Source of the DNA: a virus
Lineage: Duplodnaviria > Heunggongvirae > Uroviricota > Caudoviricetes
Reading direction: 5' to 3' (one strand)
Length of the DNA stretch: 4,564 nucleotides
Virus record (IMG/VR): IMGVR_UViG_2645727676_000015
The position numbers and the translations under genes were made by a program. Below are positions 1,542 to 4,564 of the stretch, piece by piece; the first letter of the stretch is position 1, and the number at the start of each line of letters is the position of its first letter. The notes beneath the pieces are model-generated. The model did not search any database. It saw only the letters and a list, made by a program, of their open reading frames with translations, and was not told the origin of the DNA.

Positions 1542-1575
1542 AAGCCCTTCACAGATTATGTTTAGGGCTTTTTTC
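1542..1575 (+). terminator. stem-loop (GCCCT ... AGGGC) followed by T6 (terminator or attenuator-like)
   Basis: GC-rich 5-bp stem at 1545-1549 / 1565-1569, with possible inner pairing aca/tgt and a 15-nt loop region, followed by TTTTTT at 1570-1575. It shares the acagatt and ttagggc motifs with the 1441 hairpin. Confidence 0.4.
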
Positions 1576-1691
1576 CAATTCATAAAAGCACACTTGGCAG
1601 GTTCTTGTTCAGTCAGACTCTTCACCTCTGATTGCTGAGTGTGCTTCTACGAATTTGAAAATAAGCAATTACACTAAAGAGGTGAAAAATA

Positions 1692-2396
1692 ATGTCTATC
1701 CGTGATGAACATGAAATGATTGTTGAGAACAGACCAAGTGCACTTGATATTCACGAATTAAGTTTGCGTGAATCTTTTGATAGAGCTTGGCGGGAATCAC
1801 ACGAAGTAAATAAAGGTCCATATATTCCACCAGAACCACTCGAGATTCCAAGAGTTGAAATTGATTTTTCTATGAACGAACGGTGTGAACTTGATTTGAA
1901 GTTGAAGCTACAACGCCGATATTTCCAAGCTATTAAAGACTCTCAAGAAGCAATGAGAAGTGTTTACGAGAAAATTCAGTCCAAGCTTGAAGACGAAATT
2001 GACGAAATGGTTATTTCGATGGAGCTTCAAACCAATTCTTATGCTTATTTCTCTCGACTAGACCGTGACGGTTGGGGGTATGACCCTGTAGAGATTGGTA
2101 AAGTGATTGCAGATTTACCAGAAGGTCAAAGAGTTATTCGTACAGAAAGAGCTGTCAGAGCACCACATCGACTGTCTCTAATTGTTGCTGATAAATCACA
2201 AGCTGAGCTTGAAGAAATTGCCAAAGAGAAACTGATGAAAGCAAGAGAAAATGAGATTAATTTGCTGAAATCAAGACTGGCTAAGCTGATTAGTGACCAT
2301 CAAGCGTTGGCTAAGGAGTACCGTCAAGAGTTGGCACAGATTATCAGCTTCAATGATTTTCTGAGTGTTCCACGAGAATTTAGCAAGGCTGTTTGA
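1692..2396 (+). CDS. hypothetical protein, 234 aa, with an acidic N-terminal half and a predicted coiled-coil C-terminal region
   Basis: ATG at 1692 is preceded by AGAGGTGA at 1677-1684 with a 7-nt spacer. A 705-nt open frame in AT-rich DNA is unlikely by chance. I recognise no conserved catalytic motif and no reverse-transcriptase YADD. The C-terminal heptad-like segment is QAELEEIAKEKLMKARENEINLLKSRLAKLISDHQALAKEY. Stop is TGA at 2394-2396. Confidence 0.7.
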   Translation: MSIRDEHEMIVENRPSALDIHELSLRESFDRAWRESHEVNKGPYIPPEPLEIPRVEIDFSMNERCELDLKLKLQRRYFQAIKDSQEAMRSVYEKIQSKLEDEIDEMVISMELQTNSYAYFSRLDRDGWGYDPVEIGKVIADLPEGQRVIRTERAVRAPHRLSLIVADKSQAELEEIAKEKLMKARENEINLLKSRLAKLISDHQALAKEYRQELAQIISFNDFLSVPREFSKAV

Positions 2397-2406
2397 TTAT
2401 GCAATA

Positions 2407-2530
2407 TGTGAGGTGATGTAATGTTTGAAGAACGTTTAGAGACTATTCGGTCTGTTTGCGAAAGACTCCAGCTACAACCAAATAGACAAAAGCTACGAAT
2501 TAAGAATAACCGTCATTACATCACCTCACA
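2407..2530 (+). repeat. perfect 17-bp inverted repeat, arms at 2407-2423 (tgtgaggtgatgtaatg) and 2514-2530 (cattacatcacctcaca), separated by 90 nt
   Basis: Confirmed base by base as exact reverse complements. The left arm contains the Shine-Dalgarno site and ATG of the 70-aa ORF. The right arm lies inside that ORF and carries a caccuc anti-SD-like core. Confidence 0.9.
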
Positions 2531-2633
2531 CAAACCAAAAACACGCAAGATTCCAAAGTGGTGTATTGACCGTATTCCTTCTGATGCTCAAATTATAGGT
2601 GAAACGGAACTACATTATCTTGTCCGACATTAA
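2421..2633 (+). CDS. hypothetical small basic protein (70 aa, Lys/Arg-rich; possible nucleic-acid binder)
   Basis: ATG at 2421 is preceded by GAGGTGA at 2410-2416. The central segment RQKLRIKNNRHYITSHKPKTRKIPKW is very basic. Stop is TAA at 2631-2633 and a terminator follows. Confidence is lowered because the start region is part of a long inverted repeat that may be the real functional element. Confidence 0.5.
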   Translation: MFEERLETIRSVCERLQLQPNRQKLRIKNNRHYITSHKPKTRKIPKWCIDRIPSDAQIIGETELHYLVRH

Positions 2634-2656: not shown

Positions 2657-2698
2657 GGGGAGAGATTAACCTTAATTGGTTGGTCCTCCCCTTTTTTG
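2657..2698 (+). terminator. rho-independent terminator
   Basis: GGGGAG (2657-2662) pairs with CTCCCC (2686-2691), with an inner extension gattaacc/ggttggtc around a ttaatt loop, followed directly by TTTTTT at 2692-2697. It sits 24 nt after the 70-aa ORF stop and 18 nt before the tape measure start. Confidence 0.65.
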
Positions 2699-2715: not shown

Positions 2716-4564
2716 ATGGCACAATTTAAAGTTGATGATTTTCTGATTGAGTTAAGTTTTAACTCTCAGAAAGTTTTAAAAGGCTTGGAAAAAGCCGAGA
2801 AACAAACGATGCAGGTAGCATCACGAATTGAGAAGCGGATAAATAAAGCTTTTAAGGTCAATCCTACGCCTTTAAATGATTCTCTCAAGGTTATGGAAAG
2901 AAATGTCGATAAAACTGTTTCCAAGATTGAGCAGCGTCTTAAAAACACTAAAGCGTTTAAGATTAAAACGGAAATTGAGGATACTTTAAAGCCACTTAGA
3001 CAGCCAAGACAGCCACGAATTAGCGGAAACAGAGCAATTACAGCAGCGCATAGCGTGAATATGAGCAAACTTCGTGACTTTAATCCTATGCTTGAGAAAT
3101 ATTTTAGAAGCCAGTATTACAGCTTAAGCAGTAAATCCAAGACACTTGGAAATGAAGCTTTTAATCGTGAGTTGGCAAAATTAAATCAAAATCTACGTGA
3201 AACACTTTCTAAGTTTAACAAGACCACCAGCAAAAATAATCACAGTGAAAATGCTTCAAATGGTTTAGATGTACTAGCTTCAAGTGCAATTAAAGCGGGT
3301 ACGGCTATTTACACTTTTCAAAGTGCTTTGGCAGCTTATCAGCGAGTAATGGAAGTTGGTTTACAGCGTGCAAGTGCTGAACGTTCAATTGATTTCGTAT
3401 TTGAAAAAGATGCAGGCCAAGTGAAAGAGTTCACAAAGTCATTAGCTCAAACAACGGGTTTAGATATCGCTGAACTGCAATCACAGTTTGCTGGTTTTGG
3501 TGCTTCAGCTAAAGAGTCTATGGGTATTCAAGGTTCTGAAGAACTTTTTAAAAGTATGATTGGCTATGCTCGTCTGATGGGGAGAAGTGAGGAAGAGATT
3601 AAGCGAGCACTGACAGCATTATCACAGATGGCTGGTAAGGGTCAGATTATGGCTGAAGAGCTTAAGGGGCAACTGGCTGAAGCTGTTCCTGGTATGGTTC
3701 AGGTATTCGCTAAAGCAACCGGAAAGACTGAACAGGAATTATTTGATGCCATGAAGAAGGGGGCTTTAAAATCTGCCGATACTCTTCAGAAGGTCACTCA
3801 GGAACTGAATAAACAAATCACAGCTAAAGGTGGCTGGAAAACTATTTCAGAAAGTACTCAGGCACAACTAGGGAACCTGAAAAACTCTTGGAATACCACG
3901 CTTGATAGTATCTTCAGAGGTTCTGAAAATGGTCTGCAAGATTTTACAAGAAGCCTAACAACGCTTTTGAATAGTTTAGGTGGGAGTGGTAAGAGTCTTG
4001 GTGAAGCTCTTGGTAGCTTGATGAGCGATATGTCAAGTGGTGTGGATAGTCTGACTGATATCAGCTACAGGGTAAGAGCGTTCTTCGATGAGGTGACATT
4101 AGCTTACCGTGGTTTAACCGATGAACAAAAGAAAGTAGTTGATGCTTTAGGTTCTGGCTTGATTAATAGTTTAAAAGTCTTGGCTGGTGTTATTGCTGTG
4201 AATAAAGTTGTTGGTGTAACCAGAAGTATTTACGGGCTTATGACTGCTATCACAAGATTAGGTCAGGTCGCTGATACTACAGCGGATAACGTGAATAGAA
4301 AGAATGGGAAACCATCAAGACTAAACCCTATGAATATGCTATTAGCTGGTAGTGCTATCTATGCAGGTTATGAGAGATTAGCTTCTACACCTGAACGAAT
4401 GGAAGCACAAGCTAAATTACCAGAGCTAGCTAAAGAGTCTGGACTTAAACCAGTGTTCACTATGGATGATGTGAAAGGTTGGTTTAATAGTGCAGCTATG
4501 AATCTTGCTAACTTCCAGCATCCAGAATTAATCACCATGAGACAAGATGCGGCATTAACGAATA
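2716..4564 (+). CDS. phage tail tape measure protein (lambda gpH-like), 5' portion of 616 codons; continues past the window end
   Basis: ATG at 2716 with GAGGTGA at 2702-2708 and a 7-nt spacer. The frame is open to the window end; I translated every codon by hand. The N-terminus MAQFKVDDFLIELSFNSQKVLKGLEKAEKQ resembles the lambda H N-terminus as I recall it. The segment MAGKGQIMAEELKGQLAEAVPGMVQVFAKATGKTEQELFDAMKKGALKSADTLQKV matches the conserved tape measure N-terminal domain. Later hydrophobic and Gly/Ser-rich stretches are typical of tape measure proteins. Confidence 0.85.
   Translation, partial: MAQFKVDDFLIELSFNSQKVLKGLEKAEKQTMQVASRIEKRINKAFKVNPTPLNDSLKVMERNVDKTVSKIEQRLKNTKAFKIKTEIEDTLKPLRQPRQPRISGNRAITAAHSVNMSKLRDFNPMLEKYFRSQYYSLSSKSKTLGNEAFNRELAKLNQNLRETLSKFNKTTSKNNHSENASNGLDVLASSAIKAGTAIYTFQSALAAYQRVMEVGLQRASAERSIDFVFEKDAGQVKEFTKSLAQTTGLDIAELQSQFAGFGASAKESMGIQGSEELFKSMIGYARLMGRSEEEIKRALTALSQMAGKGQIMAEELKGQLAEAVPGMVQVFAKATGKTEQELFDAMKKGALKSADTLQKVTQELNKQITAKGGWKTISESTQAQLGNLKNSWNTTLDSIFRGSENGLQDFTRSLTTLLNSLGGSGKSLGEALGSLMSDMSSGVDSLTDISYRVRAFFDEVTLAYRGLTDEQKKVVDALGSGLINSLKVLAGVIAVNKVVGVTRSIYGLMTAITRLGQVADTTADNVNRKNGKPSRLNPMNMLLAGSAIYAGYERLASTPERMEAQAKLPELAKESGLKPVFTMDDVKGWFNSAAMNLANFQHPELITMRQDAALTN

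Follow-up and report, generated by a model that had tools for sequence, protein, structure and literature searches.

Introduction

The restraint of translation by a segment of a message that pairs with the Shine-Dalgarno (SD) sequence of the same message is a kind of mechanism already known, and the locus described here adds a new natural case. In Bacillus subtilis reporters, intragenic anti-SD-like 8-12-mers pair with the SD sequence in vivo, as seen by dimethyl sulfate mutational profiling with sequencing (DMS-MaPseq), and such pyrimidine-rich segments act over tens to hundreds of nucleotides, blocking initiation and speeding decay of the mRNA (Gill et al. 2025, bioRxiv; PMC12697547). A 12-mer within the first 90 nt lowered translation efficiency approximately 10-fold, mRNA approximately 3-fold, and protein approximately 30-fold, while synonymous weakening of the motif relieved the repression; anti-SD-like 8-mers are, moreover, depleted from the genes of both B. 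subtilis and Escherichia coli (PMC12697547). We analyzed a stretch of 4,564 nt from a virus of the class Caudoviricetes (IMG/VR record IMGVR_UViG_2645727676_000015), hereafter called the window, in which a perfect 17-bp inverted repeat connects the SD sequence and the start codon of an open reading frame (ORF) of 70 amino acids (aa) with a segment inside that same ORF. Our favored reading, to which we give a probability of roughly 60%, is that the repeat acts in cis as a translational attenuator of the 70-aa gene, that is, as a self-masking SD, and that the perfect form in the window is an extreme allele of it.

In its position (+93 to +105) and its length (8-17 nt), the present element falls in the range that was strongly repressive in the B. 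subtilis study. Whereas that study dealt with engineered insertions and with genomic depletion, the element described here is known from sequence and belongs to a natural gene of an E. coli mobile element. The retention of an anti-SD-like 8-mer deserves attention because such motifs are depleted from E. coli genes, and its retention throughout a natural gene family implies use rather than avoidance.

Masked SD sequences have also been described in bacteriophages. The I-TevI, segB, and mobE genes of T4, which belong to its homing-endonuclease and late genes, have a consensus SD sequence approximately 8 nt from the AUG inside a stable hairpin, and are poorly translated (PMC2988022). In T4, the complementary strand lies upstream and is bypassed by a late promoter within the hairpin, which provides temporal control, whereas in the window the partner lies downstream in the ORF, every transcript has both arms, and no internal promoter was found in our scan. 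Long-range masking of a ribosome-binding site, with access set by folding kinetics or ribosome traffic, is likewise known from MS2 and Qbeta, in the coat-replicase "Min Jou" pairing and at the SD of the maturation gene (compare PMC2978339). The MS2 partner is situated either in an upstream translated gene, which makes for true coupling, or in an upstream leader; here it is inside the regulated ORF, and the partner in an upstream cistron that marks coupling of the MS2 type was not found.

The mRNAs of type I toxins (hok, tisB, dinQ) resemble the present case in that the SD of a small ORF is sequestered by long-range intramolecular pairing, but the 70-aa product is a basic, hydrophilic protein that lacks a membrane segment, and no pairing of the 5' end with the 3' end is seen. 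A consensus scan of the minus strand at 2400-2640 found no antisense promoter-like site, although such a scan is unable to exclude an antisense small RNA, and no Rfam match was obtained there.

Inverted Repeat and Predicted Fold

The segments 2407-2423 (TGTGAGGTGATGTAATG) and 2514-2530 (CATTACATCACCTCACA) match each other exactly as reverse complements across a spacer of 90 nt, which confirms a preliminary description of this DNA that had reported an inverted repeat holding the SD and ATG of the 70-aa ORF. The perfect match ends on both sides of the repeat, with A2406 facing C2531 and T2424 facing T2513. Perfect inverted repeats of at least 17 nt appeared in 2 of 300 dinucleotide-preserving shuffles of the window at any distance, and in 1 of 300 within a distance of 300 nt. 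The repeat is real and non-random; the earlier statement that it was essentially impossible by chance was nevertheless too strong.

Both arms are contained in one cistron and its 5' flank, and a scan of the plus strand found no promoter-like or terminator-like site within 2397-2530, so that the two arms should be carried on one transcript. Folding of 2380-2560 with RNAfold yielded -41.6 kcal/mol (z = -3.07), with the 17-bp stem present in both the minimum free energy (MFE) structure and the centroid, as the preliminary description had anticipated, and the stem was also kept when the longer context 2380-2740 (361 nt) was folded. The ensemble fold gave a probability of 0.00 that the SD of the 70-aa gene is unpaired in the window. 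The Rfam 15 covariance models produced no match at E <= 1 over the whole window on both strands.

The 3' tail of E. coli 16S rRNA, 5'-GAUCACCUCCUUA-3', is complementary to the SD GAGGTGAT in the left arm and includes ATCACCTC, the sequence at the core of the right arm. Because ATCACCTC is identical to part of this tail, the mRNA carries an internal competitor for its own SD.

Conservation of the SD Pairing among Homologues

Related loci encoding the 70-aa protein (49-100% identity) were collected, comprising 11 viral-contig, 73 metagenome, and 2 genome loci, and several from E. coli. The SD GAGGTGAT (or GAGGTGGTGA, GGGGTGAT, GAGGTGAGA, GAGGTGACA) lay opposite ATCACCTC (or GTCACCTC) at ORF positions 93-105 in every lineage. 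The pairing segment ranged from 6 to 17 bp over all 46 haplotypes, and its 8-bp core was approximately 97% paired. In 61 distinct homologues covering the same range of protein identity, the mean probability that the SD is unpaired was 0.02, with 60 of the 61 below 0.2, as compared with a mean of 0.29 for a null in which codons 5-57 were synonymously recoded. The partner of the SD was the right-arm region with a probability of at least 0.97 in most of the 61, and RNAalifold returned exactly one consensus helix, GAGGTGA/TCACCTC, for 55 aligned sequences. The mRNA helix that had been proposed to hide the SD and start codon is, therefore, recovered in the predicted folds of the window and of all but one of these homologues.

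The preliminary description had counted homologues that conserve the ORF while lacking the repeat as evidence against such a helix. The 17-bp repeat is indeed absent nearly everywhere, but a shorter SD-masking helix persists. All homologues preserve the reading frame of the 70-aa gene and vary at synonymous positions, which upholds the call of this coding sequence.

On the plus strand of the window, TCACCTC occurs at only two sites (1622 and 2521), each of them opposite an SD. Counted on both strands, six sites were observed against 0.52 expected, and none of 200 shuffles reached six. The complementarity of the right arm to the GAGGTGA sites of the neighboring 234-aa and tape measure genes, also pointed out earlier, is correct, and exists because all three genes share one SD type.

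Variants of the Two Arms

Evidence on whether the pairing is under selection is mixed and leans toward selection. The right-arm codons were near-invariant in distinct ORF sequences (ATC in 52 of 52, ACC in 54 of 54, and TCA in 53 of 54). Most of the changes that do occur are compatible with pairing. An A-U pair is replaced by G·U in 8-11 haplotypes with the pair kept, and a Citrobacter locus (L020) has a compensatory change from U-A to C-G, for which a U·G intermediate is present in L102 and L105. Two C>U changes that alter the protein, Thr>Ile (ACC>AUC) in L109 and Ser>Leu (UCA>UUA) in L112, retain a G·U pair, and L112 additionally has a synonymous AUU>AUC change that upgrades G·U to G-C. Across the family, three of four substitutions in the right-arm core (two C>U and one A>G) keep the pair, the exception being ACC>ACA in L111, and the change TCA>TCG of L084, just outside the core, retains G·U.

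The locus L116 encodes a different linker peptide (LSTSS) and has the arms AGGAGGTGG/CCACCTCCT with nine perfect pairs, including two compensatory changes relative to the main family. Its duplex energy was matched by none of 120 synonymously recoded nulls. The ITS codons lie within an otherwise variable basic linker of low model confidence (AlphaFold predicted local distance difference test (pLDDT) score of 54-63 for residues 21-40), and a purely protein-level constraint on ITS is, for this reason, not obvious.

Covariation was tested on an anchored alignment of the arms only, with 40 haplotypes, which replaced a MAFFT-based alignment whose gaps hid spacer covariation. The covariation score was 0.094 against 0.079 in shuffles, and 19 further pair types were found against 15.7; 10 and 21 of 500 shuffles, respectively, reached the observed values, these counts not being probabilities. 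When the register was slid, the paired share fell from 72.8% to 31-56%. Synonymous-site conservation was dropped as a stand-alone test, being underpowered at a synonymous divergence of approximately 0.4.

The most divergent homologue (L113/L114, 1456-1689) is a 62-aa protein without the ITS motif, whose gene has the weaker SD GAGGA and no significant mask. This single case fits low expression reached via a different route, and L113 was not used as evidence for pairing.

A Probable Second SD Mask Upstream of the 234-aa Gene

The gene that precedes the 70-aa ORF encodes a 234-aa protein, and its leader is predicted to form a hairpin of approximately -36 to -38 kcal/mol, the apex of which (TTCACCTCT) lies 50 nt upstream of the SD of the 234-aa gene and is complementary to the SD region AGAGGTGAA. 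At least four different sequence types (the window; L034, L079, L109, L110, L111, L116) retain this complementarity over 8-12 nt. Related loci have differing leaders in which each apex matches its own SD region, with the apex/SD pairs CTCTTCTAAG/CTTAGAAGAG, CCTCTTCTAAG/CTTAGAAGAGG, and CTTCTAAGTGTG/CACACTTAGAAG; further leader types have a G·U-containing version of the last of these pairs, or carry TTCACCTC in an unrelated hairpin. The strongest apex-SD matches were reached in a fraction of only 0.000-0.007 of shuffles. The covariation of this mask is clear, and it suggests that the leader acts as a pseudoknot-like SD mask. Since SD masking thereby recurs in the same operon, the prior for a functional mask in the 70-aa gene is raised.

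The 20-30-bp stem of this leader is also a plausible RNase III substrate, for which no Rfam match was found. Homologues of the 234-aa protein are labelled "transposase" in many RefSeq genomes (L107 2810-3520, matches H86-H100). This label was not supported by Pfam or NCBIfam for the window protein, nor by NCBIfam for the L107 copy, and is probably a propagated misannotation.

The Perfect Repeat as a Rare Allele

Of 5,426 complete E. coli genomes, 479 match the window by megablast. Among these 5,426 genomes and approximately 105 related loci, the perfect 17-mer was confined to the window and E. coli GB089 (L108). All loci with a 100% identical protein, the window excepted, read GAGGTGATTAATG and not GAGGTGATGTAATG, and over a 66-nt segment the sole difference between the window and this common allele is the pair-completing G2418. 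GB089 alone carries the extra G among the 120 complete genomes that match 2385-2450, and its right arm matches as well. The common allele pairs through 11 bp, a bulged C2519, and 5 bp, with a predicted duplex energy of -21.2 kcal/mol, as against -28.4 kcal/mol for the window allele. In-silico deletion of G2418 changed the MFE from -46.1 to -38.9 kcal/mol, a local fold less stable by 7.2 kcal/mol, and recoding the right arm synonymously (CAT TAC ATC ACC TCA CAC to CAC TAT ATT ACA AGT CAT) brought the predicted value to -32.2 kcal/mol. The insertion also makes the spacing from SD to ATG one base longer. Over 1690-2702, GB089 shares just 87.5% identity with the window and so represents an independent genetic background; G2418 is, therefore, no sequencing artefact. 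The extra 6 bp (GTAATG/CATTAC) also need the lineage-specific peptide RHY, the place of which is taken by HHV, RQV, or HQI in other lineages.

In E. coli, template switching is documented as a route by which quasipalindromes become perfect, and perfect repeats show over-conservation in Proteobacteria (PMC7202029, PMC5941160). The window allele resembles the quasipalindrome template-switch mutations described by Ripley (1982) and by the Lovett laboratory (PMC7202029, PMC5941160) in that an imperfect repeat is perfected by a change that the other arm predicts, here G2418 opposite C2519; both a pre-existing imperfect repeat and a change that raises its complementarity and matches the other arm were found. 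Classical cases have spacers of a few nucleotides, as opposed to 90 nt here, and the event at this locus is deduced from a comparison of alleles. Such a quasipalindrome correction probably gave rise to the perfect allele, whether or not tighter repression was also selected for; a template-switch origin appears likeliest because the inserted G is exactly what copying of the opposite arm predicts. Mutation bias and selection for tighter repression are inseparable on the present data.

The 70-aa Protein and Its Genomic Context

Homologues of the 70-aa protein, 173 in number, are found in Escherichia, Citrobacter, and Kluyvera, and are annotated only as hypothetical proteins. The protein has an isoelectric point (pI) of 10.0, a grand average of hydropathy (GRAVY) of -0.94, and a maximum 19-residue hydropathy of -0.08, with no hydrophobic segment. 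It gave no match in PADLOC, Pfam, PHROG, or NCBIfam, and its AlphaFold2 model (pLDDT 79) gave no fold match. A toxin-like product, offered earlier as one reason for tight control, finds no support in these properties.

The locus is strongly mosaic, in that the N-terminal, linker, and C-terminal parts recombine independently. Directly 5' of the right arm lies a hypervariable patch at 2496-2513 (codons 26-31; KNNRHY, KNKHHV, KNKRQV, KTKHQI, GNQRRV, and others), with many nucleotide changes between loci whose remaining ORF is near-identical. Fusion of the 234-aa and 70-aa ORFs by programmed frameshifting or by readthrough was considered and rejected, because both alleles have in-frame stops just before the ATG (TGA at 2409-2411 in the window, and TGA at -6 to -4 in the common allele).

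A near-identity search of 50,697 phage records found no match to the window. In two complete genomes, the locus lies in an island of approximately 12 kb that splits yecE (L021 13186-25032; L106 15874-27301), with the window falling in its central part; GB089 and 2014EL-1345-2 are among the strains that carry it. The last genes of the island are the tape measure gene, a Dit-like "baseplate" gene, and a large serine recombinase; the island also has several unknown genes, an HNH endonuclease, and the 234-aa and 70-aa genes, and in the two complete genomes it has no capsid, terminase, or tube genes. Some copies contain a DNA invertase of the Hin/Gin type (L021 15125-15676). The island may represent either a widespread remnant of a prophage or an element resembling a satellite. 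The literature searched yielded no paper describing it; a paper on yecE reports lambdoid Stx prophages at that site, not the present island (PMC8112680). The tape measure protein is approximately 30% identical to proteins of Felix-O1-like myophages. Because IS21-family elements interrupt the tape measure gene in some genomes (matches H27, H28, H58), and because in L106 both the 234-aa homologue (21633-22337) and the tape measure gene (22665-24713) have internal stops, the island is undergoing decay in a part of the population.

A near-consensus sigma-70 promoter (TTGACA-17-CATAAT with a TG extension) is located at 1245-1273, and three terminator-like hairpins (1281-1305, 1440-1462, and approximately 1541-1571 with a U tract) lie between this promoter and the first gene. 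Together with the further terminator-like hairpin listed in Table 1, this layout suggests that expression depends on antitermination. The 63-nt segment 2654-2716, which comprises the terminator and the tape-measure leader, is 100% identical to unannotated E. coli sites (H123-H125) in genomes otherwise without a match to that part of the window, and may mark a recombination joint or a shared module boundary. The 90-aa ORF at 171-443 has a sub-threshold HNH_3 match (22.7 bits; cut-off 24.8) and PHROG HNH-endonuclease matches, and is called an HNH endonuclease in RefSeq; it is short for an active enzyme.

Table 1. Positions in the window of the repeat, its conserved core, and the neighboring genes and signals.
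Feature	Position	Strand	Remarks
Leader hairpin of the 234-aa gene	1567..1665	+	Apex at 1621-1629; fold z = -3.39
SD region of the 234-aa gene	1678..1686	+	Complementary to the leader apex
234-aa ORF	1692..2396	+	Acidic protein with a coiled-coil C-terminus; stop at 2394-2396, 10 nt ahead of the helix
Left arm of the perfect repeat	2407..2423	+	Contains the SD and the ATG (2421-2423) of the 70-aa ORF; paired in MFE and centroid
Conserved core of the left arm (strong SD)	2410..2417	+	Near-invariant among 46 haplotypes
Allele-specific inserted G	2418..2418	+	Pairs with C2519; converts a quasipalindrome of 11 bp, bulge, and 5 bp to a perfect 17 bp
70-aa ORF (proposed regulated gene)	2421..2633	+	Basic protein: N-terminal helix, disordered basic linker, small beta domain
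Right arm of the perfect repeat	2514..2530	+	Within the 70-aa ORF, codons 32-37 (H32 Y33 I34 T35 S36 H37)
Conserved core of the right arm	2520..2527	+	Reproduces 8 nt of the anti-SD tail of 16S rRNA; covers codons ATC ACC TC-
Intrinsic-terminator-like hairpin and U tract	2657..2697	+	Hairpin 2657-2691, TTTTTT 2692-2697; between the 70-aa ORF and the tape measure gene
Tape measure protein gene	2716..4564	+	Runs off the window; phrog_4036 (3e-73), PF20155; SD GAGGTGA at 2702-2708

Discussion

We infer that the helix lowers expression of the 70-aa gene in the following way. The SD of this gene is intrinsically strong, as it has an 8-nt match to the 16S rRNA 3' tail and is well spaced from the ATG. 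Codons 34-36, approximately 100 nt downstream, carry an anti-SD-like sequence that would pair with the SD intramolecularly and compete with the 30S subunit, so that initiation would be throttled and the untranslated mRNA would probably be shorter-lived. Ribosomes might gain access in two situations, namely for the approximately 100 nt or 2 s before RNA polymerase makes the right arm, and for a moment when codons 30-40 lie under a translating ribosome. In that case, translation would occur in short bursts only, on nascent or already-translated mRNA. The G2418 allele would represent a strengthened version of the same device, with approximately 7 kcal/mol added. An RNA thermometer was also considered for this allele and set aside, as a perfect 17-bp helix of approximately -28 kcal/mol would not be expected to melt at 37-42 °C.

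Several points weigh against the self-masking attenuator, and a number of them are also what one would expect if the pairing were a coincidence that was never selected, in which case the strong SD would be complementary to a 16S-like sequence by definition and the conserved I-T-S would merely happen to be encoded by ATCACCTCA. The kinetic access of ribosomes is itself something we infer, and a preference for a strong SD with a mask over a simply weak SD is left without an explanation. Part of the signal is built in, because any strong SD is complementary to any 16S-like motif. Classical covariation is sparse, because the right-arm core is almost invariant, and the residues specified by the right-arm codons are shared by almost all homologues; as synonymous divergence from the furthest homologues is only approximately 0.4 per identical residue, three unchanged codons would be expected with a probability of approximately 0.2 (1 in 5) per lineage, and are weak evidence alone. 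The covariation check named in the preliminary description was thus borne out in part: compensatory changes (L116, L020) and changes that preserve G·U pairs were found, but the formal statistics for the 70-aa mask are modest, L111 breaks one core pair, and L113, with its weak SD, pairs no better than chance (0.12). We nevertheless regard a coincidence as unlikely. L116 has changed both its peptide and its arms and still pairs in a manner that no recoded null equalled, most core substitutions and the L084 change keep their pairs, and ITS is held in a variable, disordered linker. The depletion of anti-SD-like 8-mers from E. coli genes and the independent covarying mask of the upstream gene argue in the same direction, and even an unselected helix would physically repress translation.

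Other explanations, all of them less probable, give the repeat a different role. Under translational coupling, the 70-aa gene would be silent until ribosomes arriving from the 234-aa gene opened the left arm. The two genes share one orientation, neither promoter-like nor terminator-like sites separate them, and the short distance from the 234-aa stop to the helix is conserved in homologues. A ribosome at a stop codon protects approximately 12-13 nt beyond the A-site codon. A ribosome terminating on the 234-aa gene would accordingly reach at most 2-4 bp of the 17-bp helix, and in most homologues, with 13 nt from the stop to GAGG, it would not reach the 8-bp core at all. Because the masking partner is downstream, inside the regulated ORF and outside the path of the upstream ribosomes, and because only the first few pairs are reached, coupling is quite improbable; the 24-nt intergenic gap is, furthermore, long for termination-reinitiation (PMC10666635). 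An equally doubtful extension of masking itself is that the two SD masks, behind a strong promoter and several terminators, form a coordinated translational gate on a tail-gene operon (234-aa, 70-aa, tape measure, and Dit genes) that stays closed during lysogeny unless a trans-acting factor, such as RNase III cleaving the leader stem, an RNA helicase, or a product of a helper phage, opens it.

RNase III sites with a role in translational control are common in phage mRNAs, as in the lambda N leader and the T7 early RNAs, and the perfect 17-bp duplex of the window allele could be read, in line with the RNA processing site named in the preliminary description, as a site of RNase III or another double-stranded-RNA-specific activity, at which the message is destroyed or its cistrons are separated. 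Typical E. coli RNase III substrates are approximately 20-22 bp, however, so that the duplex is short; it has no Rfam match, and as nearly all homologues have only 8-11 contiguous pairs, such processing is not a family-wide function; this role seems very improbable. Still less probable is that the true partner of the right arm is the tape measure SD (2695-2708), to which it is complementary at 13 of 14 positions (TCACCTCACACAAA against TTTGTATGAGGTGA in the window), and that the element regulates the tape measure protein. The tape-measure SD of every homologue, GAGGTGA, is complementary to TCACCTC, but the match extends past 7-8 nt only in loci sharing the window-type terminator, the intervening spacer, 73-213 nt long, includes a stable terminator hairpin, nothing covaries, and the nearer and earlier-transcribed 70-aa SD wins in all folds. 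A DNA-level element, whether a pair of recombinase or repressor sites, an intragenic invertible switch, or the ends of a small insertion, was raised in part by the preliminary description and is hardly credible. It would suit a perfect inverted repeat in an island that sometimes carries a Hin/Gin-type invertase, and a flip of the 90-bp spacer would place a 7-codon ORF (MTVILNS*) behind the SD and turn the gene off. The perfect repeat, however, occurs in only 2 of more than 100 genomes, and many lineages pair only through G·U (G·T in DNA), so that their arms are not complementary as DNA and are not conserved as a DNA repeat. A properly flanked query found a flipped spacer in 0 of 196 matching complete E. 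coli genomes. An insertion is contradicted by the spacer itself, which encodes the conserved N-terminal 31 residues in all homologues, even where the complementarity is only 8 bp. A match to the flipped spacer obtained with a short pattern was a symmetry artefact, as reverse-complementing the native right junction yields the very sequence of one arm followed by the flipped spacer.

If the favored reading of a self-masking SD is right, the locus is a natural E. coli counter-example to the avoidance of anti-SD-like motifs, in which an 8-mer of the 16S tail is kept approximately 100 nt inside a gene family, beside a second covarying mask. The rare perfect allele would be a clean natural case of a single predicted base perfecting a repeat within a regulatory RNA helix, where mutation bias and selection pull in the same direction. 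Genome annotation can learn from this that conspicuous perfect inverted repeats are sometimes extreme alleles of far shorter conserved RNA elements. Should the doubtful proposal of a coordinated gate prove true, the operon would hold a post-transcriptional switch that times the contribution of a satellite-like element to the tail of its helper phage. The locus offers a compact system in which to ask whether long-range self-masking is deliberately used, by bacteria or their mobile elements, as a brake on expression, and how ribosomes enter such messages.

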